Notes: a model not told the origin generated them from the letters alone. DNA of 46,401 nt, filler included, from Jimgerdemannia flammicorona (GCA_003990765.1; 2 parts of 2 records of this genome joined end to end with filler, not necessarily neighbours in it); one strand, 5' to 3'. Numbered from the whole stretch's first letter, positions 1,789-43,074 are shown. A program made the numbers and translations.

Positions 1789-1818
1789 GGATTGGTTGAG
1801 AACAAACCGTATTTTACT

Positions 1819-5474: not shown

Positions 5475-5549
5475 TGGGTGGTGATATTGTATACTTATTC
5501 ATAGGCTGGTAATAAAGACAGAGTCCAAGGGACTATAAAAAAAAAAAAA

Positions 5550-10375: not shown

Positions 10376-12451
10376 TGTAAGAGGGTTACTTAATAGGATA
10401 ACTGTTACATAGTTCTGAAAGGGTTTTCTGAAAGTTCTAGATATTCTGGAAGACTATTTTCTTAAGGTCAAGATCAATTTCATATAGAGTATGTTCTCTA
10501 TATTTATTGATTTCAAGATCAGATTGATGTCTCAACCAAAGTCCTTTTTTGGACTAGTTCTAGATGTTCAGGATTTTCTATATTTCAGGAAGTTCAAGAA
10601 ACTAAGACCAGCTTAGTTGAATTGATATATTGCTATAGATAATACTCAATTAGAAAATTTTGTGATAGAGTTAGAAGTGAGATCTAATGGAGAGCAAATT
10701 TACTTAAGAGTAGTTTGTAGATTATTAAATAGGTTTATTTACTATTCATGATATTGCTATACTAGGAGTAGTTGTATGAAGGGATATTGTAGAGAAGTGT
10801 TCAGGATTGTTCTTATATATTTGAGTCTAAGATTCTGAGATCTGGAAGAGGGGGTATTTATACTAATAGAAGGCTATCTAGACTATGCTAAATATGGATG
10901 TAGTACTTAGTGTCTTGCTGAGTCAGAATATAGTTATATAGTATAAGTATGAACTGATATGTCAAGAGATCATCTGACTGCTGAGTCAGTTTATAGTCAC
11001 ATCATATGAGGCTAATCTAACTATACTAATGACTACTAAGCTATCTATAGATTCAGATACTATCTAGATAGTCTTTGATGACATTACCAATAATGACATC
11101 ATCTCTGATAAAGTAGTTATTTAGAAAGAGTGGTTCATTGATTAATTCTCCCTGTTTACTGAGATAATAATATATTGAGACTTCATCACTATTTTATAGG
11201 ATAGTATCATCTGTCTTATATGCTGAATAAGATATTGATAGGTGAAGGAGGGGTACATCATCTTTACTTTCATTGGATTTGCTGTCTGCATATCTTTTAT
11301 AAATAATGATACTATGAGTTGCAGAATTATAGTATGGTGGCAGCTGTGGCTCACTTCATTCATACTCAGGAGTTGGGGTTGTTGGTTCAATATTAAGGAT
11401 TGTTTGTAGATATAGGTTGTGTTCTTCAGTCTCTTTATTATAATTGAAGTAGTTGAGGGTAAAGGCAGATTAGTACTTATATCAGTGGTCATTATTCCAA
11501 TAGGTCTTATAGGTAGTTATGAACTATTGTAAGTTCATCAGCAAGGTTGGCGGAGTGACCAGAGTTGGCAGGAATCCTTGGCTCAAGATCATATCAGTAT
11601 CAGAGGAATTATTATCTTCTGCTTCATCATCATCAAATCAGATTATATTATAGATATCCTTTATAGCATATCTAACTTAAGGCATTTGCAAGATATGATC
11701 ATCAGGATGTAGAAAGGTTCTGTCAGTGGTCTGAATATACTCAATATACTTGTGGTTGAGTTCTTGTACCATATTATTGATTTGGCCATAGGACAGAGTG
11801 GTAACCATTTCAGTAGTAGTAACTCAGAGATGGGAAGTAAAGGTACTATACTCATAGAAGAGTTCTTAGTATTTATATATAATGAGTTTCTGATATTGAG
11901 ATACATATCTAGATAATATCAGTATCATGGTAGTGTTTGATCATATCTTTTAGAAGGCAGTCAATCTGATAGTAGCTTGAGATTTATCTGATTTGGTAGG
12001 CTTCACTAAGTATGTTCAGGGCATTCTATCAGACTTCTATGAAGTAGAGAAATACTAGGCTATGGATATTCATGAGGGGTAGAGGGGGTGTAACTTGGTT
12101 GATAATGGTATTTCAAATGTCAGTGCAGATGCAGTTGTAGATCTCAGTGATCATATTTGTATATATGTTTAAGAGTTGGAGTTATTTGTTTGATTTATTG
12201 TAGTTCTCTATTTTGAAATATCTCAGTACTCAGTATATATATATTCAGTTCTGATTGGTAAGACTCCATTTGTATAAATCTTATATTTTATAACTTCAAG
12301 TTGACTTAGCTTTGTATATTGTGACTTTGGTTTAACTCAGCTTTGTGATCATACATGTGATTTCTGGATTTGTTCAGAGGTTATATGTGATTTCAGTGGC
12401 TTTTTCAGAGGATGACATATGATTTCAGTGACTTGGGGTTGTGTACTTACA
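10376..12451 (-). repeat. 3' LTR of the chromovirus (2076 bp)
   Basis: TGTAAG...CTTACA inverted termini; adjacent to the PPT; homologous to 18883-20752 and 38614-40675. Confidence 0.95.
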
Positions 12452-12462
12452 ACTCTCCCCTT
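12452..12462 (-). other. Polypurine tract (PPT)
   Basis: Minus-strand AAGGGGAGAGT immediately before the 3' LTR. Confidence 0.85.
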
Positions 12463-12889
12463 CTTAGCTTTTGATATCCTCATTGAGGTCTTTTAATTTT
12501 AGACTAGTATTATTATACCATTTGGATAGTCAAAAGTCTGATAATATCTATTTTTCTCAGAAAGTAGCATGCTCATAGTACAGTTGTCTAATATATTAGA
12601 TTCAAACATAAAAGAGTCATATGTTCAATATTATGTATCAGAAGTGATTCTGATATCATTTACTGCCTCTAAGAAATCTTCTTAAATATCTATACATCAT
12701 TTCCCACTGGTGATATAGAGAGAATAGACTGGCTTTTATTTTTGCTGTTTTTCTAGAGAGTCAGTATTCTTTTGTCTTGACTTGCTGAGTTCTTGATTTG
12801 GTCATGATAATTATAAGGTACTTAATGTTTGAAAGGGGTAATATATAGTATTATAGATACTGAGGTGCTCAGGTTTTAGTTATTTAAAG

Positions 12890-15800
12890 AATCATATTTT
12901 TGAACTAAGTCAGTAGTATTCTGAAGATTGGTTTTAGGTTCCCACATCACATTATGGATAGAATAATCTTTCTATTTGACAAGATACTTGGGATGGTTCT
13001 TGTGGCCATATTTGTTCAACTTCTTAGTTATTAATAATGACAGGTGTGGTTTTGTGATATAGTTCAGAAATAGCTTATCATCATTTTCATTATATCACTT
13101 GAGATATTGAATATTGAAAACTAGGTGAATCTTGATGGTATCTGGTAGTACTAATTTGTAGGAAGTTAGAGAGACTTGTGTGATGACTTCAAATAATCCA
13201 ATGAATTTACTGTTTAGCTTTATAGATGGTCTGTGCTTGAGATTATCAACTCAGTATCCTCAGATGTCCAGTAGAACCTTTTCTCTAATAGTGAAAGTTT
13301 CTTCTCAGTAGTATTGGTTGACATATTGTAACTATTGTTCTTAAGCTTGAGATAAATTCTCAATAGTAATCTGGTTTAAGTTGTACATTTGGAGTAGGAA
13401 TTCTTTGTTGGCTTTGACAGTAGAGAGTTCATCAGTAGTTAAGATAAGTATCAGAGAAGTGTTTGGGTTTTATCCTATATTGGTGAAGAATGGGGTCATT
13501 CCAAGAGAAGCTTACTTGCTATTGTTATAGGCAAACTTGACTCTAATAAGGTGTTCATACTAATTATCTTATCTATAAGAAACATAGTTCCTTAGTATTT
13601 TTTTTAGAGTTCAGTTTATTCTTTCAGTTTGGCTATCAGTTTTGGGGTGAAAGGCTGTAGATAGTGTAAGTTTGTTCTAAGGTGTATATGTAGGGCTTTC
13701 TAAAAATAGCTGGTAAACTTCAGGTCTCAGTTACTAATAATTATTTTAGAAAGACCATGATAACAGAAGATATTGTTAAATAATAGTATAGTAATTTCAG
13801 ATACTATTGCAGTTATAGCAGTAGATACAAAGTTAGCTTATTTACTAAGATAGTCTATGAAGACAACAATTATATCTTTTCTATTCTTGGTTCAGGGTAG
13901 TTGTATAATAAAGTCTATAGAGATTCGTTCCCAATTAGCAGATGGTACTAGAATGAGATGGAGTAGATCAGATTTTGCTAGTGTTGAGGATTTGTTGTAT
14001 TGGTAGATATCATAGGAAGTGATGTAGGTCTTTAGCTGATCTGCCATATAGGGCCAATAGAAGTTTTGGGAAATAACTTCATAGTATTTGTTGAATCCTA
14101 GATGTTCAGCTATAGGGGCATTATGATATTTGAATAGGATAGTTCTTTAGAGGTCTCAATTATTTGGAATATACAATCTGTCCTTATAGTAGATAGCATT
14201 ATCCTTTAGTTGGTATTGATGATACTGGGTATGCTTGTTAGCATTATTACTACTTAGGATTTCTCAGAATACTTGAGCTTCTTTATCATCAGCATATACT
14301 ATAATAATTTATTCTATAATAGAGTTGGTAACCAGATGAGAGTTTGGATAACTTCTTCAATTAGTGGTCTAGAAATTACATTGGCAACAATGTTCTCCTT
14401 GCTAGAGTGATACTGGATTTTATAGTCAAAGTTGGTAAGGACTTTCATCCATCTGGCTTACTTTTAGGAAAGGATAGCCTGGATCTTGATATTAACTAAT
14501 GATTTGTAGTCAGTAAATATAGTGAAGTGTACTCCTTCTAGGTATGATTGCCATTTGATCAGAGTGTCTACAATGGCTAGCATTTCTTTCTTATAGGTTA
14601 TATAGTTGATTTTGGCATTATTGAACTTGTGAGAATGATAGGCCACAAGGTATTCTTCTTGTATGAACACTGCTCTAAGAGCTAGATCAGAGGCATTAGT
14701 AGTAACTTTGTATAGTAGAGCAGAGTTTGTTACTTGAAGTACTGGAGTAGTTATCAAGGTCACCTTTAGTGCTTAAAAGGCTGTATCTTGTTCAGATTCC
14801 CAATTTGCAAGATTGTTGAAGTCTTTTTCTTACTTTGTGGTCCAAGACTATTCTTCTTTCTTACTATGCTTAGTTATTTGGGTAAGGGTAGTAGTGATCT
14901 TAGCAAAGTTTACAACAAATCGCTGATAATAGTTTGCTAATCTCAGAAATAACTAGAGGTCTTTCAGCTTCTTTGGTCTGGGCCAATTCTTGATTGTAGA
15001 GATTTTGCTAGGGTCTACTTTGATTCCATTCAGTCTAAGAAATAGAATTTCTTTCAGGAGAAATTTACATTTGCTGAGTTTTGCAAAGAGTTAGTTTTCT
15101 TAAAGTTTCAGTAGTACTAGTTTAAGATGTTCAAGATATTTCTACAGGGTTTTGCTGAAGACTAGGATGTCATCAATGTAGACAACAATAAATTTGTCTA
15201 GATATGGGTATAGGATGATATTCATCAGTGTCTGGAAGGTTGTGGGAGTATTAGTTAAGTCAAAGGGTATAATTAGGAACTTGAAATATCCATGTGAGTT
15301 CCTGTTTTGTAGATATCTTCTTCTTTCATGGCAATTTGCCAGTAACCATTTTGCAGATCAAAAGAGCTCATAAATTATGAGTTAGTAAGTCTATCAAATA
15401 TTTCATCAATTCTGAGTAGTGGGCAGTAGTTCATGATTGTTTGCTCATTGAGATCATAGTAGTCTATGTACATTTATAGGTCTCCTCCTTTCTTGACAAA
15501 AAGAGGACCGATATACTATAGAGTAATACATGTGCATCAATTTCTCTCAGAGATATGTGGTAGATTGACTTGAAGGCTAGCTTGATATCTGGGATGGTCT
15601 TGATGATATAATCTACTACTTGTTTAGATGGTAGGCCTTTTGGGAGTTTCTTTGGGAATATGTTCAGAATTTCTAGAGTAGGGGTCAGACACAGCTGTTA
15701 ACTTTGGAAAAGTCTTCTTCAAGGTTCTCAGATTCTCCTTTAGATGGTCAGATAGAGATAGCAAAGAGATGGCATTTCTTGGCCAATTTCTTAAGTTGTA

Positions 15801-16250
15801 GCTTATTGATATAAGTGATTTTTGAGCCAGGATTACTAGAACTGAGTGGGTCTTTTTCACTTTGCAGTTTGAAATTGTGGCATTCTTTCTTGATGGTCAG
15901 AGAATGGTTTATCCAATTGATCATAAAGTTCTCTTGTTTTAATTATAAGGTTCCAAGGATGATTTCATTATCAGGAAGTAGTATAATCTGGAGGATAACA
16001 TATATTCAGTAGTTGCCAATTCAGAAGAGTATGTTGCAGACTTCTCTGCTAATGATATGAGAGGATCGATTTGTTGTAGCAACTGCTTGAGTCTGTTGCA
16101 CTGGAGAGATCAGGACCTTGAGTCTGTTGGCTGTTTCTTCATTGATAAAGTTGCCTGAGACACTGCTGTCTATCATAATCTTAATAGATGCTCAGTTGAC
16201 AAAAGCTTGGAGTCTAAGCTATTTGTCTAATTCAATAGTTGTAATTTCAG
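12890..16250 (-). pseudogene. pol: pol: aspartic protease, RT, RNase H, integrase, chromodomain
   Basis: Protease IMIDSSVSGNF (~16150-16180); RT PFDLTNTPTTFQ and VVYIDDILVFS (~15160-15190); RNase H TTNASDLAL..NYITYKKEMLAIV (14464-14763); integrase STAFHPKTDSQTERIN; chromodomain YLVK*KDY..WEPKTNLQN (~12920-12990). Many stops and frameshifts. Confidence 0.93.
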
Positions 16251-16259
16251 TTATAGGAG

Positions 16260-18830
16260 CTTTTCTTCTGTTAGTTCTTCTTTGAGCCAGTTTGCTGATA
16301 CAAAAGAAGTAATTATTGATCATTCAAGAAGAGTACATTCCAATGTCATGAGGGCATCAGCTGCTTGGTATATATCTATTTTTGATTTTCTTATAGAATT
16401 ATTTTTCCTTGCTTATAATAGATTGGGCTAGAGTCTTATTTGATGAGTCAAATCCTTTAGATTCTCAGATGATAGGTAGTAGTTCAGAGACTTCCTTGAC
16501 TATTAGAGTTGACTTAATTTTTTTGAATAGAATCTGGATAATATAGAAACTAATAGAGATCTTAAAGGATGTCCAACTATGGTTTCAGATAAGAATAATG
16601 ATTTTGCCTGTATAATCTTCATCAATAACTTCTTCTTCTACTGAGAGTCCTTTCAATGCTAGACTACTGTGACAGCATATTCTTCTAATATATCCTTCAG
16701 GAATTTGAATATTAATCTCTATGTAGACTTACTTGACTTCTTGATTGGAAACTGTAGCTTCTTTGGCTATATATAGATCATAACTAGCTGCTTTTTGACT
16801 TTCTTTAGTTGGGGTTTTGGCAGTTAGCCTTAACTTGACAAAGTCTAATGTCTTGGTAGTCAGATTGTTGAGGTGATGTAGAGTGGTAACAGTTGCTTAT
16901 GTTACTGTTTAGGGTTTTCAGTTGGGGCAGATACTGATCATATGTCCTATCTTACAGCAATAAAAGTATACTTCACTTCTTCAAAGTTTATTTCTTTCTC
17001 CTTCAGTAAGTTTCTTGAAGGTACTTGGCTGGGTAGGTTTATGATTTCAGAGTGTCCAAGAGATAGATATAGAGGGAGCTCAGGATGCTTTATGCTTGGG
17101 TTCTTCTTTCTTAGTCAAAGTTTTTTCCTTATTGTTGAATTATCTTTAATGCAGAATTGGTCCAGCTGTCAGGATTTGCTTGACCATAGTCTTGATTCTT
17201 ACTAGATATCATTGTTAGTGATCACAACCAACTAGATGTCCTTGTTCTCAGATTTTTCTAGTAAGCCATTCAGGCAATACATCAAATAAATGATCTGCTC
17301 TTATACTATTTTGTACTTCATCATTGGCAATGTATCCTAGGCCAATGGTATTCAGGAGTAACTTGAGTTTTGTACAGAAGGTTTTGAATTCCTCTTTACC
17401 ATGTATATTAAATTTGATATTGCAAAGTTTTACTTGAGATTTAGCAATCAAGGTTTTGCTGTGATATTGAGCAATCATGAGTTATTTGAGTCTAGGGGCT
17501 CCAGGATGGGCTCCATATCCTGGGACATTATTTGCTGCATTTTGGGCAACTACTGTAGATTGGATATCTCATATAAGGGGTTTTTTAAGAAGGGTTCACT
17601 ACTATTCTTTAGTGGGTCCTCAGAAGAATGTATGTAACAACTCAACAGACATAGGCTGTAGTAGTAGCAAAGAGTTATTCCAGAGTGTGGTTTTGATTGT
17701 TTGTCAGAAGGCAGTCAGCAACTTACTTATTGGTTCATTGATTGACTTTGAAGTTGGTATCAACTATACTAAAAAAGCTTTGGACTTCTTGTATAGTACT
17801 ATTGAAGATAGGTAGGCTCAGATTTTTTATTGGTTAGGTTTGTTTGGCTAAGGCAGTAATGGTTGCTATAATTATGGCTATCTGGGCTGTGAGATCTAGA
17901 ATCTATTGGATTGTCATATTGTTTACTAGAGGTAGTTGGACTACTGGTAGTAGTATTACATACTGGTACTACTTGAGATACTGGTGCAGAGTGTGATGAT
18001 ATTCTTTGAGTCTATATAAGTTGCTGAAGTAATAGTTGTAGGTCTGGAGTAAGGGCTCAATAGGTAGCTATCTATTACTGTATAGGTGTGTTTTGTTCTA
18101 ATAGAGGTATGTCTCCTTTAGTGATATATCTAGGATCGAATTCACTAAGATACTCCTCCTTCTCTTCAGTTTGGTCTCTGTGTAGTTGAGTTTACTTGGT
18201 ATCAAAGTAGACAGAATTAGTTATATATCAGATTTCAGATGGGCTTAATTCAAAATCAAGTTCTAGTTCAGTATTGGTTTCAGTTTCAGGTAAGATTATA
18301 GCTAGGCCTGCTACTGGTTCAGAGTCAGGTTGTTGATAAAGAGTTTCTCTTACTTCTTCTTTGAGAATATAGTGGGCCTTATAATTCTGAAAGTAGTAGT
18401 ATAGGCAGTCTTGGTCCTGGTATGGTGAAAGTCAGTAGAGTTGAGCTACTTGACTATAGAGGCTTGGGCTTCATAAGAAACTAAGGTTAGAAAGACTACT
18501 GCTGGTTATCCTAGGTTACTTGGATTTATAGAGCTGACAAAATTTCTATTGAGAAGAGTAAAGAAGGCTTCTATAAGATCTTCTTTATCTTGACTTGTAG
18601 GATGTAGAGCAAGGAGTTCAGTATATAGAATTTCACCTATCTGCTGATTTAATTAGAGTACATTTTTTTGTAAATAAAGTCTGTCTCACTTATTATAGGT
18701 GTAGAGGTCAAATTGTCCTTGTACATCAGGTTCAATTCTTTCCAGATTGTCAGATAGTTTAGGATAGATTCCAGTTCAGAGATTGGACTTTATACCAACT
18801 TATAGGAATTCTTATAGAGGTTTATAATGG
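16260..18830 (-). pseudogene. gag: gag region with degenerate CCHC zinc knuckle; boundaries approximate
   Basis: (Y)FYCCKIGHMISICP at ~16921-16970 fits CX2CX4HX4C with the first Cys mutated; coding-like fragments such as 17248..17478; lies between the PBS and protease. Confidence 0.7.
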
Positions 18831-18867
18831 GGTGAGGAAGTATCTTGAAGTGAAATTGGATTGTAAA

Positions 18868-18879
18868 CTGCTGCTACCA
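18868..18879 (-). other. Primer-binding site, probably initiator tRNA-Met
   Basis: Minus-strand TGGTAGCAGCAG 3 nt inside the 5' LTR edge; complementary to a ...GCUACCA tRNA end. Confidence 0.75.
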
Positions 18880-18882
18880 AGT

Positions 18883-20752
18883 TATAGGAGGGTTACTTAT
18901 TAGGGTAACTATTATATACATAGTTCTGGAGGAGTTTTCTAGAAGTTCTGGATATTCTGAAAGATTGTTTTCTTAAGGTCAAGATTAATTTTATATGGAG
19001 TATATCCTCTATGCTTATTAATTTCAAGATTAGATTAATGTCTCAACCAAAGTCCTTTTTTGAACTAGTTCTGGATGTTTAGGATTTTCTATATTTCAGA
19101 AAGTTTAAAAAACTAAGGCCAGCTTAGTTGAATTGGCATATTGCTACAGATAATTCCTAATTAGGAAATTTCATAATAGGGTTAGGAGTAGGACCTAATA
19201 GGGAGCAGATTTACTTAAGAGTGATTTGTGAATTATTAAATAGATTTATTTGCTATTCATGATATTGCTATACTAGAAGTAGTTGTGTAAAGAGATATTG
19301 TAGAGAAGTGTTCAAGATTGTTCTTATATATTCAAGTCTGAGATTCTGAGGTCTAGAAGAGGAGATATTTATATTAATGAGAGACTATCTGGACTATGCT
19401 AAATAAGGATATAGTACTTAGTGCCTTGCTAAGTCAGAATGCAGTTATATAGTATAAGTGTGATCTGATATATCAAGAGATCATCTGACTGCTGAGTTAG
19501 TTTGCAGTCACATCATATGAGGCTAATCTAACTATACTAATGACTACTAAGCTATCTATAGATTTAGATACTATCTGAGTAGTCTTTGATAACATCACCA
19601 TCAATGATATTATGTATCTCTGATAAAGTAGTCATCTAAGAAGAGTAGTTTGCAGATTACTTCTCTCTGTTTACTGAGATAATAATATATTGGGACTTTG
19701 TTACTATTCTATAGGATAGCATCATCTATCTTATATATTGGATAAGATATTAGTAAGTGAAGGAAAGGTGTATCATCTTTACTTTTATTGGATTTGCTAT
19801 CTGTATACCTTCTATAGATGACAGTACTATGAGTTACAGAGTTATAATATAATAGTGGCTGTGACTCATTTCATTTATACTTGGGGGGTAGGATTATTAG
19901 TTCAATCTTGAGAGTTGTCTATAGGTATATGTATTCTCCAGTCTCTTTATTATAGTTGAAGTAGTCAGGGGTAAAGATAGATTAGTATTCATACCAGTGG
20001 TCATTATCCCAATAGGTCTCATAGATAGTTATGAACTATTGTAAGTTCATTGACAAGGTTGGTGGAGTGACCAGAGTTGGCAGAGATCCTTTGCTCAAGG
20101 TTATGTTAGCATCAGAGAGATCATTATCTTCTACTTCATCATCATCAAATTAGATTATATTGTAGATATTCTTCATAATATATCTAACTTGGAGCATTTG
20201 CAGGATATAATTATTAGGGTGTGGGAAGGTTCTACTGATGGTCTGAATATACTCAATATACTTGTGGTTGAGTTTTTATACTATATCATCGATTTGGCCA
20301 TAGGATAGAGTGATAACTATTTCAGTAATAGTAACTCGGAGATAGGGAATAAAGATACTATATTTATAAAAAGGTTCTCAGTATTTATATATAATAAGTT
20401 TCTAGTATTGAGACATCTGAATAATGTCAGTATTATGATAGTGTTCAATCATATCTTCCAGAAGACAGCCAATCTGATAGTAGCTTGAGATTTGTCCAAT
20501 TTGGTGGACTTTGCTAAGTATGTTCAGGGTATTCTATCAGGCTTCTATGAAGTAGAGAGGTACTAAACTATAGATATTCATAAGAGATAGAGGGGGTATG
20601 GCTTGATTAATAATAGTATTCTAAATATTAGCATAGATATAGTTGTAGATCTCAGTAGTCATATTTGTATATATATTTGAGAGTTGGAGTTGTTTGTTTG
20701 ATTTATTGTAGTTCTCTGTTTCAATACATCTTGGTGCTCAGTATATATGTAT
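18883..20752 (-). repeat. 5' LTR of the chromovirus, interrupted ~220 bp from its outer end by a nested element
   Basis: Colinear with 10376-~12240; similarity stops at 20752, where TGTAA of a different LTR begins. Confidence 0.92.
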
Positions 20753-22223
20753 TGTAATGTGCTGGCTCAATGGAGGCAAATTACAAGGTTGGGGGTTGAT
20801 GTAGTTTGGCTTGAGCCCCCAGTTACTTTGTTAAAAAGCAACAAAATGTTCGAAGATTCCTGAGGTCCTTGGTGTTTAGCAGTATAATAGTCAAAGCTGG
20901 ATATCTGCAAGCGATTTCCTTATTGGGATGGTTCTCTGGGTGTAGCAGCGATTTGTATGTCTTTTCCTTCTTGGGTCAACTAGGAATGGCACAATTTCTG
21001 TATAGCGCGACAATCTCCTTGTGCATGACGGTCTGGCAATTTAGTGGTTCTCCTTATGTGATTTCTGCGTGATGATCTCTGTGTAGCACAACGATCTCTG
21101 TGTAGTGCAGTGGGTTCCTTATGTGGGATGTTCTGATAATTTGGTGGGTAACTCGATTTGGCTCACTGGGAATTGTATGGTGTGGATTCTTCCTGAAATG
21201 GCAGAGTTCTTGAGGAATGCAGATAACTCGGAAATGGTGGCTTCAACTGAGAATTATCTTGGGTGGTGGATAACTCGATAACTCGGGCTCACTGGGAATG
21301 ATGAATAAGTCACGGTTTCGGCTTCAACTGAGAATACAGCAGATAACTTGGAAATGGTGGATGATGCAGATTCTCCTGAATTGGCGGGCTCTAACTGGGA
21401 AATGGGATGGTGCAGATTCTTCTAAATCGGCAGCTTCAACTGAGAATACGAACTACTGGTGGCATTCTTTGAGAAAGGGTCTCTTGGCAAAGTTGCATCA
21501 AAGACTGGCTTCGTTTGTGTGAATGGATCACTGTGAAGTTGCATCAGAAACTAACTTGGGCAAGGTGGCTTTCTCTGGGAAGGCAGAGGATAGTGTTCTT
21601 CAGGCTTATCTGGCAAGCATACCAATAGCATGGCTTATTCCTTTAAGCGGCGGGTTCTTCAAAAGGCGGCGAAGTTCTCCTTGAACTTAGGTGGCAAATC
21701 TTCAGGCTTATCTGGCAAGCATACCAAAAGCGTGGCTTATTCCTTAAGCGGCAGGTTCTTCAAAAGGCAGCGAAGTTCTTCTTGAACTTAGGTGGCAAAT
21801 CTTCAGCTTTGTATCGGAAAGTGGACTGGAGTGGAAAGGGGACCAATGCTCAATCTTTAGAGGCTTCTTTGGTATTTATATTTCGGACTGAGGTTTTATT
21901 CACTCTCATCTCTAGGGTAATTTATACAAGTTGGTTGCTATCTGGTTGCTATGTGGCTAACTATAGATTTGCTATCTTCAGTAATGTTTGGGTGTGTCCT
22001 CTGGGTACAGGTGTGTCTGCAGGACATGAGTGTGTCCGCAGGACATGAGTGTGTCCTCAGGACACAGGTAAATAATCCTGATCTGGTGTCTTGGCTAATT
22101 ATAAGTATGGCAGGCATAAGTAACTATGATATACTGGAAGTCACATCATGCTGAGTAAGTATGCTAATTGTTCACATCATCTGGCTAAGTTATAATTCAG
22201 GTAGTACATTTTGGTCTGTTACA
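20753..22223 (-). repeat. 3' LTR of the nested gypsy element (1471 bp) with internal tandem duplications
   Basis: TG...CA termini; ~103-bp tandem duplication at ~21599-21805; repeated GCTTCAACTGAGAAT; minus-strand TATAAATA at ~21873-21880. Confidence 0.8.
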
Positions 22224-25759: not shown

Positions 25760-26005
25760 TTGAAATTGAGAGACCAGGTGGGCCCTAAATCGAGATATTG
25801 GGTGGCTTTAAGTCAAGAGCAGGTGGCCTTAATTACGAGGCTGACAGGCAATCTTAAATCGAAATGCCAAGTGGCCTTAAGTCAAGAGTAGGTGACCTTA
25901 AATTGAGAGACTGGGCAGCCATAAAATCTAGAGGCCAAATGGCTGGCCTCTCAAATTAAGGCTGCCTGGTCTCTTATAGGTAGGTGGTCTTAAGAGACCT
26001 TTAAT
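25760..26005. repeat. Array of ~23-24-bp units (consensus ~CAGGTGGCCTTAAATCGAGAG), forward copies then inverted copies
   Basis: About 7 forward units at 25760-25935, then reverse-complement units (CTCTCAAATTAAGGCTGCCTGG) near 25945-25975. Confidence 0.75.
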
Positions 26006-26153
26006 CAATCTGGAGAGGCTAAAATTTATAAATAATAATAATAATATTTCTCTATTTAATTGGATTCAATAAGATTTACGATTATATTATATAGTACTAT
26101 ATTATATATATTAAATTTTATAAATAGTAACAAATGAATATATATAAATTAGA

Positions 26154-26237
26154 TTATGTTTAGGGTTAGGAATTAGGGTTAGGGTTAGGGTTAGGGTAGC
26201 TTTAGGTAGGGTTAGGTTAAGTTATGTTTAGGTTAGA
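26154..26237 (+). repeat. Interstitial telomere-like (TTAGGG)n tract
   Basis: Four perfect tandem TTAGGG at ~26173-26196 with degenerate TTAGG/TTAGGG copies on both sides. Confidence 0.85.
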
Positions 26238-27554
26238 TTGGAAAAAATTCAAATAAAATGATTTATATTATATATATATATTATTTATATAATATATTTA
26301 TTATAATAAGTAAAATAATATATAATTAAGTTATAATAGTTAAAGTAGTTATTGAGATAATTGGTCTCTAAACTGCTTTTATCATTATAGCTTACTGAGA
26401 TTTTCATTTATATATATATAAATATATACTTAAAGATATTTATAATAATTAAAATCTATTAAAACAGTCCAATTACTAAATATATAACTGATTAATATAA
26501 AAGACAATAAGAAAACAAAATGAAGTATACAAATAAATTTGAAAAAGTAGAAAGCAAAGAATATAAAAAGATAATACATATTCTAGATTAGAATTATATA
26601 TTTTATTTGCAAAAGTTTTAAAAAGAAGAGTAAAGAGAAAAGAGGCTATTAGAAAAGATCCACAAGATATGCTTAAGTACAGAAGTATAGCTACAAATAT
26701 AGCCTTAGTATCAATTCTTTATATTAATTATATCTTTTATATTGGTCCTATCTCTCACACTAATATATATATATATATATATATATTATTATCAATAATC
26801 CTATATGTTTGCCCATACTATCTAATATATTTATTTCTGTTATCTAATATATTTGTCCTGCTCTTTGTGATATCAGTCATTACTAATATTATATAATTTT
26901 CAGTTCAAGTTTTATACTATTAAATGTTATTCTATATAATTATATTATCAGAAAGCCTTTAATCAGTATACTTATTTTGGTTGAATTTGGATGAATATTC
27001 ATATAGAAATTGAGATTTTTGTCACAGATCTATATTTATTCATCTCTATCATTTGCCATCCACCACTTACTACTATTGCTCACCACTGCTCACTATTTCT
27101 GTAGACCATTTCCATTAATATATCCTAGCAAAATAATGTTCACTTTTGATATAATACTATAGGCATAAATGTCCAACATGTCAAATCAGACTTTTGCTCA
27201 TCTATTTTATTAAGAATGACATAGTCCCACAATCTAGAAGATAGGCAGTAAACCATTTAAGTTGGTGTTCAAGATTCAGATAATGGTTTTGTTTTGGAAT
27301 ATAAGGTAGAAGGGGGTATTCTTCTACATACTGCACTATTACATTAATAGTTACAATTGTGGATGTAAATATTCTTCTGCACTAGTCACTGAATTGCTAA
27401 AGCTGCTAATTTAAAGATCTGGTATCCAAGGCTACAATTTAGTAACTAATATAGTTATGGATATTATGATGACAATTTCAGCCTTAAATCTATGTCTAAT
27501 TGAGGCCATTAGATGGTCAATCTGAAATTTGGTGTTTGATATGACAGGTAGTCT

Positions 27555-32899: not shown

Positions 32900-35800
32900 A
32901 CCAATTAATTATATCCATCCTTGCATTTTAGCCTTTTTTCCATATGTATTGTACAAAATTTTCCTAATATCTTTGCCTCTTTTATCCAATCTTTTACTTT
33001 AGAACTTTTAGACTCTTTACTTGTAATTCTAATATGACACTTTTGATTATTATTTTTTACTATAAAAAAAGTACATTATTCATCTTCAGATATATCTGTT
33101 CTTTTTCTTTTTTCTTTTGTATACTATCTCCTTATCTATTATCTATATAAGCATTGTCTTGTACTTATTTAGTTAATGTATGATTTCTAATAAACTCTTT
33201 GTGAGATTTAAGATATTTTTTTCTTTTTTCTGTCAAATTCATTATTTGATATTGTTCTTCTTCTTTTGCAAGATGTGAGAAGAATTGTGCTCCTTTAGAA
33301 AAGAGTATAATATTTTGACATTGAAATACCTTAATTATATACTCTAGTCCTTCATTCTAAGCTAAGTCAGCTTCATGAATTCTATTGAAATATTCTTGAA
33401 AATTTTTATACTTATATCCAATATAAGGAAGTCACTTATGATGTAGACTTTCATTTTGATTTGTTCCTCCACCATCTGCATAGAAAGCATAGTCTTTGAG
33501 CATAGCTTATATAATTTTCTTTTTCCGAATCTCAGCATCCTGATAGATAGAAATTGTTCTTTCATCAGCTCCAGGCTCTGGCCTATATAATTTATCTTAT
33601 GTCAGTGGTGGTATACAGATTTGTTATTGATTGAAGAATATGATGATATATAGAATCAGCAGTGAACTGAAGTTGTCCTGATAGTAATTCTATATTGTTC
33701 ATTGTTGATACTTCTTCTCCAAGCTGTTTATATGGAAGCTGGATATAATATGCTTCATTACCATCCTCATCCTCATCCTTATCCTCACTGTCATCACTAG
33801 ACTGATTGTCAGAATAATTGTCAGGCTGTTCTATCAAACCTTGTTACTCTATGGATAGGCTATCAGGCTGCTCCAGAAAATCGAGCCCAAGGGATGGGTC
33901 ATCAGAATGACCACTGTGTTTCAGTAAATTGCATCCATCAGAATAATTGCCAGACTGCTCCACTAAACTGAGTTGCTCTTTAGAGCTGAAATCATCTTGT
34001 AGCTCTATGGATGGGCCATCAGAATCATGGGCCTGCTCTAAATCATCAAACTGCTCCAAATCAAGTTGCTTATCTTGTCACTATATGGATGAGCCATCAG
34101 GATGACCATTATGTTTCAGTAAATCATGTCCATCAGAACTGTTGGGCTGCTCTAAACCAAATTGTTCTTTGGAGCCGAAATCATCTTGTTGCTTTATAGA
34201 TAGGCCATCAGGATCATCGAGCTACTTTAAATCGTCGAGCTGCTCCAAACCAAATTACTCATCTCATTGCTCTATAGATGGGTCATTAGGATGACCATCA
34301 CGTTTCAGTAAATTGTGTCCATCAGAATAACTATCAGGCTGCTCCACTAAACCAAGTCACTCTTTGGAACCAAAATCATCTTGTTGCTCTATGGATGGAT
34401 CATCAGAATTGTCAGGTTGGTCCAAATCGCCAAGCTGCTCCAAATCATCAAGCTGCTCCAAATCATCAAGCTGCTCCAAATCATTGAGCTGCTCCATTAA
34501 ACCGAGTTTCTCATCTCGTCGCTCTACAGATAGGCTATCAGGACAATCATTGTATTCCAGTAAATTGCATCTATCAGAATAATTGTTGGGCTGCTCTAGC
34601 AAATTGAGTCTATCCAGCTCTGGCAAATCTAGTCCAGGTCCTGGAGATACATTGAGAATGTTTGGGACACTTTTGTAAATATTAAAAATTCTGTAAAGGA
34701 ATATTATCATTATCATCTGTATAATGAGAGAGAATAATATATGAATATGTTCCAATATCAAAGTGATTATACTCTGATATATTAAAAGGAATAGATGATA
34801 AGTCAATTGTCTCTGATCTCAATTGTATAATGTCTCCTTTATATATATTCTTAATATTAGCAGTTGCTTGAAATAGTAATGATGTACTATTTAAAATAAT
34901 ATCATGAAATCGATGAGGACATCCATCTGAACAGTTATTATGATTATCAATATTCCAGATTTTTTAAAAGCTTGAGTAGATTGTCTTTACCACCTTTGCT
35001 CTGAAGATTAATCTTAATATACTGACTATAACTTTTAAGTATAGATGCTGCAAATCTTTCTTAAGTTCTTCTTTTTATGAGCAAAGTCATATGTGCTAAT
35101 CATCCCAGTATTATCAGGAAGATTGCCTTGAATCTGCTTTACTTTAGTAAAAGCTTTAGAATCTGTATCTGTATATAGAGATTTAATCCAAATATTTCTA
35201 TCTTTTAGCTGCTTCATAATATTATTTAATACTTCTCCTGCCATTGCATTACTAGATCTATAGAAATTCTGATCTCCACTAGATTTCATAATTCATTTTC
35301 TATTAGCATCTTGTTGAGATATATCAATATTATTTCTAGATACAATACTTGTTACAATAATTTTAGCTTTTGAGTTCTGCTTCTGTTCTTGTATTATAAG
35401 TGTTCCTGAATAATTTTGTATATTTCTTTTATGTGTCCATGGTTTATCTCATATTACTTGCAAAATAATTCCATTTTTATCTGCAAGATTAATAGCATGT
35501 TTTCTCTACTTTTTTGTGCCAATAGTTTACAAATATTCCCATGATGTTGATGTTATTGATGAAAGGTTTTTTTGCTAATAAGAGAAAGATCTATTGCTGC
35601 AAAGAATTCACTATATTCTTTATAATCTATAGTAGCAATAGCAGAAATAGCAGCAACTCTAACTTGAGCAAGAGATTGTTTTTTCTTTCTAGCTTCAGTA
35701 GGTTGTATCTTTAGTCCTCCATTAAAGATATTTAGTTTTTTGCAATTTATATAGATAAATGTTAATGCTATTGATAGTGCATATTTTTGCTCATTACAAT

Positions 35801-37170: not shown

Positions 37171-39092
37171 TGTTGGATATATTGAGGTTGGATGTTGACA
37201 GTTGTCAAGTGACATTTAGAAGGTGTAATTATTGACCGGATTGTGATATGAATGATCAGACAGAAAAAGCAGTCTTCACTCAGATTTCACTCAGATTTCA
37301 ATAAAGTGTGCTCACAAAAAAGGTTTTTATGATAGAGGGTAATTATATATAATATAAATTATCATTATGCTCAATGAAAGAGATATTAGTAAACCTAAAA
37401 ATAATTTTCAGAGATTTTTCAGACTAGCTGTATAGTGAGCTATCAGGTTGGTAGGCAATTTCCGAGGCCATTTATCGGGCCTCTAAAAAAAATTTTGACG
37501 GAACTTCCCCTGTATCCTTAAGCTGACCGAGCCACCTGAAAAGCAGCCTAAGCCTATCTGGAGCGGTTAAGTTACCTGAAACCACCAGCCAAGCTACGTC
37601 AAATTATAGTAACACGGATATAGGAAACTGCCAGCAGAGTCTTTTCCTACTGTCAAACTAAATTTTCAGTCTGATAGCCCATTGGGCCAGCCCGGGCCAG
37701 CCAGGCTCAGCCCGGCCTGCTAATATACCTAGTTGGATTGCTTGTTTTGGAGGCTGTGATATTCCACCAAAAATTAGGTACTGCATGAACTCTAAGTCTT
37801 GAAATCTGCCAGTCTGCCTTTATTATCTTTGACAAATATCCCTATTTATATAGCTTTATTTGATGAATACTATAAACTATATTAGTTCTCATCATTTTCC
37901 CTTTTACTGAATTCTCTGAACTCCAGATTGAGGAGATCTCCATCCTCTTGGCTGTCATCAAAATCTTCCTCTGAGACTGCATATACAGTTATCTAACCAT
38001 CAATCAGATTGGTAGGTGTGTTTGTAGGTATGTTGGTGAATGGGTTGATGAATGAGTTGGTGGGTGGGTCAGTAGCTTTCAAAAGACACCCTCTAGGAAA
38101 ATGTCAATTGAACTCTGTTAGCTATTCAATTGCCTCTTTTAACTACTGCTTGTAGACAGAAAGCTGTCCATGAATCAAATCTTCCTCTGTATCAAGATGC
38201 ACTGCTGCATCAGAATGCACTGCAGTAAGTTTCTTCTCTTTACATTGTACACACATTTGGAGTATATCTACTTGAGCCTGTACCCACTTTCTCATCCAAT
38301 AAATCTTAGCCTACAGAATCTCAAGCTCTTCCTTAGTACATTTAAGAAGAAGAAGGTGTCAGACCATGATTACTTCATGAGGAAGAAGAAGATGCCCTTG
38401 TCCAGCCAGCTATAAAGTATACTGAGTTCAGAAGACTCTATTCAGTTTTGCAACTGTAACTAGATTAGTGTTTCTGAACTAAGCTAACTCAGGATAGCTC
38501 TTTGTCATTTTATTTAATCTTGCAAGTTGGGTTTTAATATTTTTGTTTTTACACTATAGATCTTCTGCAATCTTCTGTACTTATTTAGTATCAATATGTT
38601 GTCCCTGACTTAGTGTAAGAGGGTTGCTTTTTAAGGACCTGTTATATAGTTCTGGAAGGGTTTTTCTGGAAGTTCTGGATATTCTGGAAGACCATTTTCT
38701 TATGGTCAAGATCAATTTTGTATGGAGTATGTCCTCTATACTTATTGATTTCAAGATCAGGTTGATGTCTCAACCAAAGTCCTTTTTTGGACTAGTTCTG
38801 GATGTCAGGATTTTCCATATTTCAGGAAGTTCAAGAAACTAAGACCAGCTTAGTTGAATCGGTGTATTGCTGCTGACAATACCCAATTAGGAAATTTCGT
38901 GACAGGGTTAGGAGTGGGACCTAACAGGGAATGGCTTTACTTAGGAGTGATTTGTAGGTTATTTAAATAGATTTATTTGCTATTCATGATATTGCTATAC
39001 TAGAAGTAGTTGTGTGAAGGGATATTGTGGGGAAGTGTTCAGGAATGTTCTTATATATTCTAGTCTGAGATTCTGAGGTCTGGGGAAGGGAG

Positions 39093-39100
39093 TATTTATA
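39093..39100 (-). promoter_or_regulatory. Probable LTR TATA box (TATAAATA); AATAAA ~115 bp downstream at 38972-38977
   Basis: Both motifs are present at equivalent positions in all three LTR copies, in the order expected for U3-R-U5. Confidence 0.6.
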
Positions 39101-39289
39101 CTAGTGAGAGGCTATCTGGACTATGCTAGATATGGATGTAGCACTAAGTGCCTTGCTGAGTTGGAATACAGTTACGTAGTACAAGTGTGATCTGCAATAT
39201 CAAGAGATTGTCTGACTGCTGAGTCAGTTCACAGTCACATCATACAAGGCTAATCTAACTATACTATGACTGCTAGGCTATTTATGAGT

Positions 39290-40387
39290 TTAGGTACTGT
39301 CTGGGTAGTTCTCGATGACATTACTATCGATTGTATCATCTCTGATGAAGTAGTCATCTAGGAAGAGTAGTTCATGGATTACTTCTTCTTGTTTGCTGAG
39401 GTAATAATACATTGGAACTTTGTCTCCATCCCACAAGATGGCATCATCTATCTCATATGCTGGATAAGGTGTTGGTGGCCAAAGGAGGGGTGCATTGTCT
39501 TCACTTTCATCAGATTCACTGTCTGTATACCTTCTGTAGGTTACAGCACTATGGGTTGCAGGGTTGTAGTAAGCTGGTGGCTGTAGTTCATGTCGCTCAT
39601 ACTCGGGTGGTGGAGTGGTTAGTTCAATCTCGAGGGTTGTCTGGAGATACAGGTTGTGTTCTCTGGTCTCTTCATTATAGTTGAAGTAATTGGGAGTGAA
39701 TATGGATTGGTATTCATGCCAGTGGTCATTGTCCCAATAGGTCTTGTAGGCTGTTATGAATTGTTGTAAGTTCATTGGCAAGGTTGGCAGTGTGACCAAG
39801 GTTGGTAGAGATCCTTGGCTAGAGGTCATGTTGGTATCAGAGGGATCATTATCTTCTGCTTCATCTTGATCGAAGTGGATTATATCGTAGATGTCCTTCA
39901 TGGCGTATCCAACTTGGGGCATTTGCAGGATATGATCATTGGGGTGTGGGAAGGTTCTGTCTGTGGTTTTGACGTACTCGAGGTACTTGTGGTTGAGTTC
40001 TTGTATTATGTCATTGATTTGGCCATAGGATAGAGTAACAACCATTTTAGCTGTGGTAACTCGGAGGTGTGGAATAATGGTGCTATACTCATAGAAGAGT
40101 TCTCAATGTTTGCAGGCGATGAGCTTCTGGTGTTGAGACATCTGGGTGATATCTGTATCATAGTGGTGTTCGATTATGTCTTCCAGGAGGCGGCTGATCT
40201 GGTAGTAGCTTGAGATTTGTCTGATTCAGTGGGCCTCACTAAGCATGTTCAGAGCATTCCATCAGGCTTCCACGAAGTAGAGGGGTACTAGGCTATGAAT
40301 ATTCATAAGGGGCAGAGGGGGTGTGGCTCGGTTGACAATGGCATTCCAAATGTCAGCACAGATATGGGTATAGATCTCGGTGGTCAT
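39290..40387 (-). pseudogene. LTR (U3)-encoded ORF, ~365 aa, unknown function
   Basis: ATG at 40387 is in frame with the open 251-aa ORF 39290..40045; only three TGA interruptions (40262-64, 40226-28, 40103-05). Start and stop positions are conserved in the other two LTR copies. Confidence 0.8.
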
Positions 40388-43074
40388 GTTTGTGTGTTTG
40401 GAAGTTGTAGTTATTATTTGTTTTGGTTCTCTGATTCAACGTGTCTCAGTGCTCAGTATATATGCATTTGATTCTGATTGGTAAGATTCCGTTTGTGTAA
40501 ATCTTGTATTCTGTGACTTCATATTGACTCAGCTTTGTGCACTGTAACTTCATTTTGACTCAGCTTCATAATCAAGCAGGTGATTTCTAGATTTATTCAG
40601 AGGTTGTGTGTGATTTCAGTGGCTTGTTCAGAGGGTGATATGTAATTTCGGTGGCTTGGAGGTTGTGCGCTTATACTTAGATGAAGAACCTCAAAAGCTT
40701 TTCCTACCACCAAATAATGTAATTTCTTTATGATCACTATAAACTTCCAGTGATATAGTTGCACCAGTTCTTCTTGATATAGTATTCTATCTACTGGCCA
40801 CCAATGTCCCTCTGCCAACTCCTCAACAAGCTTCTCTACCTCTCTGCTCACTTTTCTCAACTCACCTTCCAACCACTCTGCTTTTGTTATAATTGTATAA
40901 TGACTATTATGATCAGTCTCAGCTATAGCCTGATCATACTGATAAAGAGTCTCAAAGTATTTATCAGCTACTGTCAGTTTGGCTATATTATCTTGCTGAC
41001 AAAGATATGTCTTATGTGATCCCCACAGTTCAATCAACTTATCAGAACTCAGAATATCACTCTCTGCTGTATTTTGTTGATACTGCTTCAGATCTGTATT
41101 GCTTACTCTCATTATCTCTAGATATACCATATCATAGCCAGCCCTATTCTCATTCTGATTCAGTTATTCTACTCTAGAATAACAACTTCAAGAATTTGAG
41201 TTTGATGCTCTGATGTCATCCTTTTTGTTATCTCAATAAAATATACAAGATATGGCCAGAGCCTCTCTATCTATTCACTATCAGTCAGATCATAACCTCT
41301 GATATATCAAGGATAGAATTGAGTTTGATATCTTACATTATAAGCATAGATATGAAAGACTGTAATTGCATAGCTAATATAATAAGTCTTCTCAGCTAAG
41401 TTTGAATTTTTTTAATTTAATAAAAAGTATATATAATTTAAATTTAATTTAATACCTAAGTTGTAGTTTATTTTAAATCTTATATAACTTATCTCAACAT
41501 ATTTCTTAAATATACAGTTTGTATCATAAAGAGTTCTAATTCTCTCTGCTTTTCACTTATTAATTAATCAATCAAGAATATTAAGAATATATATCATTCT
41601 TTCACCTGTTCCATGAAAGTTCAGTCCTCAATAAGCTCATCTATGATAAGTACATATCATTACAAATACACCTGTGATCTCTATTGATCTTTTATCTATA
41701 AATTTTCTTATGCTACTTTAAAATGATCACTATATTTACCTTTACTCTTTCTACTAAGTTATCTATATTCATAAAGCTTATCAAAGATATTAAACTTATT
41801 ATCAAGTATAAAAAATATCTTCAGTCTCTTTAACAGAGTACTGATATCATATGTATTATGTACACATATATACTTCAGCCTATAATTACTATCAAAATAA
41901 ACAAATATCTATCAGTCAAGTCCAGTCTTAGTCAGGTCTTCAGAGTTATAAGTTACTTTTGGTGGTAGACATGTAATATATTCAATATTAAGACTCTAAT
42001 TAGTTTGATATAGCTGGTGCTCAATAATCTGACTTCTTTATAACCAAGTATGCTCATACATACTGATGATATCAATAAAGAGTTTATAGTAAGGTAATTC
42101 TTCCTAATTATTTTAAGAAAATTTAGATAAATATTTTAGAAATATTTCAGAATATCATAGTGAGTTATATGGTTTCTATATTAAAGAGTATATAGGTATT
42201 ATAGCTTCATATAACAGAAGTGTAAAAAATATATATACTCATTTACTTACTATGCCCTGTATATTAGTATATGTATATATTCTATAGAGTATTATACCAT
42301 GCTTAGTATGAAATATCAAAACTAAAAAAATAATAATAAAACTCAAACACTTAGATATAGAAGGTCTTTTTTTGTATTTCAGGTGAGATAAAAAAGTACC
42401 CAGCATAGATCAATACATAATGAATTGGATATTCATTATAAGAAAAAATTTTATAGTATTTACTTTCTATATATATGAAATTATATTATTTATTTATATA
42501 AGAAAATACAGTAATAGCAAATTTATAATACTCATCTTTGAGACTAATATACTTTACTGTCTTTCTGATTTTTTGTGAGTATGTATTAAGTACTATTTTT
42601 GAGATCAACTGTGTGAAAAGATAGTAACTCTCAAGCCAGTTCCTCATAAATATTTGCTCACTTTGCATAGAGTTATTCTTGTTTTTCATAGTATAACTTG
42701 GTAGATAACTATATGGTAGTAAGAAAATATCTCACTTCAACTTCATCATCATTATTGTTAGCATGTACAGACCCAGCCTCCATGCTTTTATCCTTCTTAT
42801 TTTTACAGAACTTAAGACTAGAGCTTTGTTCCTACTCTATATATTATTACTTCTCATTCTGCTATATTTTCTTTATAATATCAGTGAGTCTGCAGAAACC
42901 ATATCCAGTCAAAGAGTCTGAGCTTAGTTCTATAATATTCTCAATCTTGCATTTCTTCTAAAGAGGACTGAAATGAATCATGATTGAGTTTTGATTATTT
43001 GTTTTAGTTTAATAAAGATTTATTAATATTTTTCCATTTATATATATATATATACCATACTATAATTATAGTTT

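Follow-up and report, generated by a model that had tools for sequence, protein, structure and literature searches.

A reading frame inside the long terminal repeat of a dUTPase-bearing chromovirus from Jimgerdemannia flammicorona

Does a retrotransposon's long terminal repeat (LTR) ever carry a protein-coding gene of its own? The LTRs of LTR retrotransposons are usually treated as non-coding control regions and are masked by annotation pipelines. The question is raised by a stretch of the genome of Jimgerdemannia flammicorona (GCA_003990765.1), referred to here as the window, which comprises 46,401 nucleotides (nt) in two parts joined end to end with filler. The window holds three copies of a 2.06-kb LTR, two of them belonging to one full-length element and the third standing alone, and an open reading frame (ORF) of up to 365 codons is found in the sense strand of each. 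Coordinates of the ORF and LTRs are positions in the window, and all three LTR copies lie on its minus strand. In our judgement it is probable that the LTR of a dUTPase-bearing Ty3/gypsy chromovirus family contains a complete sense protein-coding gene, which was under purifying selection while the family diversified.

The LTR copies and their shared reading frame

An initial annotation of the window had taken the 2.06-kb repeat to be an LTR, and it is a true LTR throughout. It has TG..CA-type ends, a polypurine tract and a primer-binding site adjoin it, and a 5-bp duplication, CTAAG, surrounds the copy that stands alone. In blastn and repeat searches, positions 38614-40667 of this copy matched 10376-12443 with 80.1% identity, and positions 38643-40468 matched 18917-20753 with 80.3% identity. 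The exact ends of the LTRs were then set by three-way alignment and direct reading of the sequence. The lone copy is a solo LTR, with both ends intact, the same duplication on each side and no adjoining internal region. The target duplication was seen at this solo copy, the 5′ LTR of the full element being truncated. The main features are as follows.

38614..40675, minus strand: solo LTR, 2062 bp, TATAAG..CTTACA (three-way alignment, blastn)
40676..40680, minus strand: target-site duplication CTAAG, upstream copy, 5 bp (direct reading)
38609..38613, minus strand: target-site duplication CTAAG, downstream copy, 5 bp (direct reading)
39290..40387, minus strand: LTR-borne ORF, solo copy, 365 codons plus TAA, with TGA at codons 42, 54 and 95
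10376..12451, minus strand: 3′ LTR of the full-length element, TGTAAG..CTTACA, with its ORF copy at 11053-12154
12453..12465, minus strand: polypurine tract AAGAAGGGGAGAG, 1 base before the 3′ LTR
12452..18882, minus strand: decayed internal region (dUTPase, reverse transcriptase (RT), RNase H, integrase zinc finger, Tf2-1 SH3 and chromodomain, from Pfam)
18868..18879, minus strand: primer-binding-site-like TGGTAGCAGCAG, 3 bases after the end of the 5′ LTR
18883..20753, minus strand: 5′ LTR, first ~215 bp missing, with its ORF copy at 19564-20662

The ORF lies wholly within the LTR and in its sense strand. In the solo copy, its ATG is found 289 nt inside the LTR and its stop codon 676 nt before the LTR end. 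The ATG codons at 40387, 12154 and 20662 occupy homologous alignment columns in the three copies, as do the stops at 39290 (TAA), 11053 (TGA) and 19564 (TAA). The solo frame measures 1098 nt, or 366 codons including the stop, and direct reading finds no frameshift in it and three in-frame TGA codons (40262-64, 40226-28 and 40103-05). Its longest open part covers 270 codons (39290-40102). In this copy the sense frame has only 4 stops, including the terminator, while the other five frames have 9-34. The ORF copy in the 3′ LTR has a +4 indel, which is a frameshift, and many stops; the copy in the 5′ LTR has −3 and +4 indels and many stops. All three ORF copies in the window are now dead.

The three TGA codons of the solo frame differ in their distribution. 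Codon 42 is TGA in all three copies, and codon 95 reads TGA, TGA and TAA across them. Codon 54 (40226-28) is TGA in the solo copy and CAA in both other copies, and it is the only stop with this contrast. These observations agree with the initial annotation, which had described the shared frame with common start and stop positions, the absence of frameshifts from the solo copy with its three TGA codons, and the CAA codons at 40226-28 in the two other copies, the last of which the alignment confirms. The annotation had further suggested that TGA replaced an ancestral arginine codon through loss of CpG. This idea gains support from a protein relative, P0003 (see below), which has Arg at all three TGA sites, and from the loss of most CpG from this DNA. 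Recoding of TGA as a sense codon was considered and rejected, since one copy terminates the frame with TGA and P0003 has Arg at the three sites.

The frame is more open than chance would produce. A chance model of 2000 Markov-1 random LTRs with the same dinucleotide make-up gave a longest open run of 94 codons on average and 216 at most, so that none of the 2000 matched the observed 270. The fewest stops per 366-codon window of these random LTRs averaged 13.6, with a minimum of 4, compared to 3 in the solo ORF.

The 5′ and 3′ LTRs of one element are identical at insertion. In the full-length element, 286 of 1833 aligned sites have since come to differ between them, with transitions accounting for 276. 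C>T changes private to the 3′ and 5′ LTR, respectively, number 40 and 60 at CpA, 40 and 27 at CpC, 14 and 21 at CpT, and 7 and 4 at CpG. The paired LTRs have observed-to-expected CpG ratios of 0.02 and 0.05; the ratio is 0.30 for the solo LTR and 0.17 for the window as a whole. Of 56 old CpG sites that can be detected, the solo copy retains 20 (with TG at another 15) and the paired LTRs 1 and 2. The GC content is 0.41 in the solo LTR compared to 0.32 in the linked pair. The repeats thus went through C-to-T hypermutation, either like repeat-induced point mutation (RIP) or driven by methylation, and lost most of their CpG. The dominance of transitions and the dinucleotide bias are of the RIP type, whether from classical RIP or from methylation-driven decay. 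The solo copy is the least damaged of the three. It is far less mutated than the closely linked pair, which would fit a process that strikes linked duplicates harder.

The same decay provides an internal control for selection. Differences between the 5′ and 3′ LTRs arose after insertion and are neutral. The test set consists of sites at which the 5′ and 3′ LTRs agree and the solo LTR differs, and it includes the divergence of two active lineages. Post-insertion differences fall on codon positions 1, 2 and 3 in the numbers 75, 51 and 67 (chi-square p=0.10). Between the solo copy and the pair, the corresponding numbers are 5, 1 and 16 for transversions (chi-square p=0.0003) and 44, 17 and 66 for transitions. 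The third-position share is therefore 82 of 149 in the test set compared to 67 of 193 in the control (Fisher p=0.0002).

A comparison of non-synonymous and synonymous rates (dN/dS) had been proposed as a check on the initial annotation. Among the LTR copies within the window, the crude Nei-Gojobori dN/dS is 0.124 (202 codons), well below the 0.403 (346 codons) of the post-insertion control; these ratios omit stop-bearing codons and ignore a strong transition bias, and are meaningful only relative to the control. The transition bias and the omission of stop-bearing codons also explain why the control itself falls below 1. For codons 115-365 taken separately, dN/dS is 0.124 compared to 0.528 in the control, and purifying selection is firm only for this part. 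Since both of the compared lineages are LTR-borne, the frame was part of the LTR when this selection was at work. It is a real coding sequence, now or formerly a gene, that was shaped by purifying selection.

Natural proteins related to the ORF product also keep the frame open. Protein searches covered 5.8 billion clustered proteins and 1.84 billion representatives. P0003 is a protein of 128 amino acids from a Joint Genome Institute (JGI) metagenome (1180-bp contig). It has the same start Met and is 81% identical to the window protein, and its frame continues unbroken from Met1 to residue 128, past the junction at codon 115. Of its 24 differences from the window protein, 18 are those expected if the window codon had decayed by C>T or G>A. 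P0002 is a protein of 247 amino acids from a European Nucleotide Archive (ENA) metagenome (998-bp contig). Over codons 115-364 it shows 61% identity and 79% positives to the window protein, with two gaps of two whole residues each in the alignment, and its terminus lies 1 residue from the end of the ORF. In neutral simulations (n=2000) run down to 61% identity, the frame acquired a mean of 5.3 stops and only 13 of the 2000 sequences were stop-free. Positives in these simulations averaged 71.5% and reached 77.6% at most, and thus none attained the 79% seen for P0002. A further match, P0004 (E=1.7e-4), is a protein of 68-residue repeats whose score is the sum of six short matches and whose Pfam matches contain no significant stretch. 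It was taken as chance.

The element and the predicted product

The initial annotation had assigned the element to the chromoviruses, and its domains bear this out. Pfam was applied to the internal region in three frames, read with X at stops, and found dUTPase, RVT_1, RNase H, Integrase_H2C2, SH3_Tf2-1 and Chromo in this order. RVT_1 covers residues 1189-1283, RNase H 1362-1486, Integrase_H2C2 (the integrase zinc finger) 1576-1632 and SH3_Tf2-1 1884-1931. The chromodomain (PF00385, residues 1954-1998, E=1.4e-5) scores 25.3 bits against a cut-off of 25.1, a marginal match in a decayed copy. The dUTPase (PF00692, E=2.6e-19) is encoded at 16441-16821 on the minus strand, upstream of RT in Pol. 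Protease, gag and the rve core gave no Pfam detection in the decayed full-length copy. The element at 10376-20753 is thus a dead full-length Ty3/gypsy chromovirus that carries a dUTPase.

The best named relatives of its Pol are found in a charophyte alga (36% identity), cyprinid fish (33%) and a rust fungus (33%), and relatives from metagenomes reach 43% identity. The combination of dUTPase and chromodomain in a Ty3/gypsy Pol has been described in PosPlaTy3 of Postia placenta, in elements of Phanerochaete chrysosporium and in Tmt1 of Tuber melanosporum (PMC2864245), and the present element resembles these in that respect. The text passages of PMC2864245 that concern them mention no LTR gene. 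A chromovirus with dUTPase, taken together with the hypermutation of the repeats, would suggest a fungal host.

At the 5′ end of the element, the first ~215 bp of the LTR are replaced by DNA at 20754-23155, whose GC content is higher (0.44). No remnant of the missing ~215 bp is present elsewhere in the window. This DNA contains a 101-bp tandem repeat at 21597-21806 (2.1 copies, 94% matches) and a weak match to an integrase C-terminus at 22829-23056 on the minus strand, and it may be another element that cut off the 5′ LTR. A 188-codon open frame at 40600-41163 (minus strand) begins in the DNA flanking the solo LTR and extends over the first 76 bases of this LTR. It has no Pfam match and probably belongs to an older repeat that received the solo LTR insertion.

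The predicted ORF product has up to 365 residues and is acidic, with an isoelectric point (pI) of 4.5 that falls to 4.05 in the last 190 residues. Its commonest residues include Tyr, Thr, Asp, Glu and Pro, and it is predicted to be soluble. The highest 19-residue hydropathy is 0.98, and the product contains no hydrophobic segment and no signal or membrane segment. In the ESM Atlas there was no usable match for P0002 (its stored model has a pLDDT of 0.39), and P0003 gave mixed matches with few features in common. Two PPxY motifs at residues 260 and 270 were not taken as functional, as they are absent from P0002. The product might be a trans-acting regulator of the element, either an activator of the LTR or a counter to host silencing. 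This guess, which is weakly held, is prompted by the acidic, aromatic-rich C-terminal half and by analogy with foamy-virus Tas and other retroviral regulators encoded at the 3′ end.

Promoter-like motifs and competing explanations

The sequence around the ORF contains several motifs that may bear on its transcription, listed here for the solo copy.

40596..40658, minus strand: two tandem 32-bp repeats, enhancer-like, near the 5′ end of the LTR
40504..40565, minus strand: two tandem 31-bp repeats, each with TGAGTCA, upstream of the ATG
40457..40481, minus strand: candidate promoter P1, made up of CCAAT (40481-40477) and TATATA (40462-40457), ~70 nt upstream of the ATG
39218..39248, minus strand: downstream arm of an inverted repeat, with TGACTCA, between the ORF stop and TATAAATA
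39093..39100, minus strand: candidate promoter P2, TATAAATA, 190 bp after the ORF stop, kept in all three copies
38972..38977, minus strand: predicted poly(A) signal AATAAA, 123 bp after the start of TATAAATA, kept in all three copies

The 32-bp tandem repeats are also present in the 3′ LTR, at 12353-12434. TATATA is kept in all three copies and CCAAT in the two copies that retain that part of the LTR, and an A occupies position −3 of the ORF ATG. The ORF is flanked by a 31-nt inverted repeat (40503-40533 and 39218-39248) that is 77% complementary, and its upstream arm is one unit of the 31-bp tandem repeat. Over the whole window, TGASTCA occurs 7 times compared to 8.7 expected and is not enriched; its placement beside both TATA boxes is suggestive. 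These motifs can be read as two promoter modules that would share an enhancer element.

As the initial annotation had stated, the ORF ends 190 bp before the TATA-box motif TATAAATA, and AATAAA lies further downstream. These two motifs would form the usual TATA-R-poly(A) layout of an LTR, with a predicted transcription start near 39070, which would place the gene in U3. This placement is read from motif positions, and the second promoter-like module, upstream of the ATG, would permit other transcript maps.

The gene, complete in our reading, sits between the module of tandem repeats, CCAAT and TATATA on one side and the TATAAATA and AATAAA of the LTR on the other. The motifs suggest that TATAAATA would drive the genomic RNA, and the gene would then occupy U3. 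In the same way, the upstream module would drive an mRNA of ~1.5 kb ending at the poly(A) site of the same LTR. Each LTR, including a solo LTR, would then be a self-contained transcription unit. The purifying selection, in our reading, implies that elements with a working gene copy left more descendants during the diversification of the family. It is possible, and no more than tentatively proposed, that each LTR is in this way an independently expressed gene (enhancer, CCAAT and TATA, 365-codon ORF, poly(A) signal) making a trans-acting factor that the element needs. The initial annotation had gone further and held that the gene could both spread and persist independently of gag-pol. Spread is overstated, because a solo LTR cannot transpose; persistence stands, and a solo copy may perhaps be expressed as well.

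Several points weigh against a complete gene under selection. At E<=1, Pfam assigns no family to the window protein (P0001), to P0002 or to P0003. A search of the Protein Data Bank (PDB) with a sequence profile gave no relative of the ORF product (best E=0.13), and an AlphaFold2 model from a 3-row alignment has a mean pLDDT of 32.6 with scattered helices, too poor for fold comparison. Among the 1.84 billion representatives, the relatives found are two, P0002 and P0003, plus the one weak, repeat-driven match. Both are known here as proteins, and their frames need not lie in LTRs. Expression of the gene is a prediction from sequence motifs.

Other points of the same kind concern the N-terminal part, and they lead to a narrower explanation, that the gene is real with only its C-terminal 251 codons (Met115 to stop) functional here, the N-terminal 114 having been lost or being optional. 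P0002 begins at the residue aligned with Met115, and the longest open part of the solo frame takes in codons 115-365. The TGA at codon 42 and the stop at codon 95 are common to all three copies, so that their common ancestor may already have had a broken N-terminal part. Three independent CGA-to-TGA changes are somewhat unlikely, given TG at 15 of 56 old CpG sites. Selection is strong only at codons 115-365, while codons 1-114 have a dN/dS of 0.125 compared to 0.222 in the control and position counts close to those of the control. However, P0003, which is 81% identical, reads past the junction from Met1 to residue 128 and has sense codons where the solo copy has its three stops, which speaks for the full 365 codons in at least one lineage. 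In addition, CpG sites mutate repeatedly in the copies, which makes parallel stops plausible, and the start of P0002, a protein from a 998-bp contig, may be a gene-calling artefact. On balance, restriction of the gene to 251 codons is a possibility to be taken seriously, and we regard it as somewhat unlikely.

A different doubt concerns the place of the gene in the LTR. The upstream CCAAT and TATATA could be the sole promoter, in which case the gene would lie in a very long R and not in U3, the genomic RNA would have the ORF as its first cistron, and TATAAATA would be incidental. The upstream motifs have a textbook promoter layout ~70 nt before the ATG, with tandem repeats of the LTR-enhancer type and A at −3. 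Such an R would, however, measure ~1.45 kb, and the succession of TATAAATA and, 123 bp on, AATAAA is what LTRs usually have and is kept in all three copies. Moreover, the poly(A) signal of the 5′ LTR would be far from the cap, where retroelements are not known to suppress it. A long R is accordingly unlikely. More doubtful still is the idea that the LTR has captured a host gene and carries it as a passenger, which plays no part in the life cycle of the element. LTR retrotransposons do capture host sequences, and the ORF product resembles no retroelement protein in Pfam at E<=1. Added ORFs in LTR retrotransposons are described in passages of PMC5408684 and PMC7264820. Yet the selection signal arises among LTR-borne copies, so selection acted within the LTR; no host-type homologue occurs among the 1.84 billion representative proteins, and start and stop positions are intact in all copies.

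The 31-nt inverted repeat that brackets the ORF at 77% complementarity might mark the ends of a separate element nested in a formerly shorter LTR, an alternative the initial annotation had itself named. Direct reading finds no target duplication at the outer ends of this inverted repeat, its upstream arm is a tandem-repeat unit, and its arms, with TGASTCA-type sites beside TATA boxes, are more suggestive of shared enhancer modules. LTR ends, polypurine tract, primer-binding site and target duplication bound the whole 2.06 kb, and even if a nested origin were true, the gene would now be part of the LTR. We consider such an origin very improbable. Least credible of all is a chance opening in non-coding LTR DNA, which could appeal to the lack of a known domain and to the low-confidence structure model, but would have to account for a frame that 0 of 2000 random LTRs equal, for the third-position bias and for two diverged natural proteins that keep the frame open. 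A complete, selected gene within the LTR is thus the reading that we prefer.

Surroundings, known systems and significance

Other repeats lie elsewhere in the window. Of 122 window ORFs, 82 with >=75 codons were compared with Pfam; transposon domains, and no others, were found on 6 of them, and the remaining 76 gave no match. The domains on those 6 ORFs are LINE endonuclease and RT, DDE_1, Mutator and a scrap of integrase, with no host gene. Two copies of an element like a long interspersed nuclear element (LINE) form a large inverted repeat at 175-9762, whose arms (~175-4397 and 5550-9762) are ~77% complementary. Its endonuclease is found at 1879-2553 and its RT at 3412-4443. The sense strand of the arms has 38% G compared to 15% C, giving a GC skew of about +0.5 and then −0.5, and several frames on both strands of this region are open for 200-340 codons despite decay. 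An interstitial telomere-like array of 9.8 TTAGGG units lies at 26160-26216 in AT-rich surroundings (GC 0.20 over 26001-27000). A DDE_1 transposase fragment is present at 29972-30358 (plus strand, E=5.9e-13) and a Mutator-like transposase fragment at 35038-35292 (minus strand, E=4.7e-7). Finally, an acidic open frame at 34360-34818 (minus strand) shares part of its length with a 189-bp tandem repeat at 33893-34444 (2.9 copies, 75% matches).

The closest parallels to the LTR-borne gene come from retroviruses. The sag gene of mouse mammary tumour virus (MMTV) lies upstream of the main promoter of the LTR and is present in two copies per provirus and one per solo LTR. The nef gene of human and simian immunodeficiency viruses (HIV/SIV) and the bel/tas genes of foamy viruses are accessory, lie at the 3′ end and overlap U3. 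In foamy viruses a second promoter serves these genes, and the Tas protein is a transactivator with an acidic activation domain. Long sense ORFs inside retroviral LTRs have been noted in passages of one paper for MMTV sag, lentiviral nef and bovine foamy virus (PMC2664473), and MMTV sag in particular shares with the present case a long sense ORF wholly within a long LTR (PMC2664473). The same source notes the long ORFs of lentiviral and bovine foamy virus LTRs (PMC2664473). However, the carrier of sag is a betaretrovirus, while here it is an env-less Ty3/gypsy chromovirus, and the ORF product has no Pfam family at E<=1 and no sequence similarity to MMTV Sag. A Sag-like membrane protein is unlikely, as the predicted product has no signal or membrane segment and its hydropathy maximum is 0.98. 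The genes nef and bel/tas start in the internal region and overlap the LTR only partly, whereas in the present case the LTR contains both start and stop as well as a promoter-like module. Their products Nef and Tas have no similarity in sequence to the ORF product (Pfam at E<=1; best PDB E=0.13).

Among retrotransposons, the additional ORFs (aORFs) of plant and rotifer elements are known from the internal region, either after the 5′ LTR and before gag or after pol and before the 3′ LTR. Their likeness to the present ORF is that they are extra genes, mostly of unknown function, beside gag-pol, according to passages of two papers (PMC7264820, PMC5408684). Passages of the plant aORF review (PMC7264820) contain no wording that places an ORF in, within or inside an LTR, and the one LTR-wording passage of the rotifer paper (PMC5408684) is unrelated. 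In contrast to these internal-region aORFs, the ORF described here is inside the LTR and present in a solo LTR. Cassandra elements, which are terminal-repeat retrotransposons in miniature (TRIM), contain a 5S RNA gene in each LTR. They resemble the present case in that an independent transcription unit is embedded in the LTR and copied along with it, and they differ in that the unit, carried by a non-autonomous plant element, is an RNA gene of pol III, while here the gene is protein-coding. Full-text literature on ORFs inside LTRs yielded retroviral cases only; subscription journals and supplements are outside its coverage, so an earlier description is possible. In layout, the gene would be a sag-type LTR gene, and it appears to belong to no known accessory-gene family. 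A protein gene contained in an LTR is otherwise known mainly from a few retroviruses.

These findings have a practical side, in that long LTRs should be tested for coding signal before they are masked. With no known relatives, the ORF product is a candidate transposon-host interaction factor of a new kind. Solo LTRs are commonly counted as dead relics and can, if the present reading is true, be gene copies. If each LTR is indeed an independently expressed gene, working copies of an accessory gene would be scattered genome-wide whenever an element recombines to a solo LTR, and a retrovirus-style regulatory gene would have arisen independently in an env-less chromovirus. A selected LTR gene would thus show that the U3 accessory-gene habit of complex retroviruses also arose in a simple gypsy-type element.

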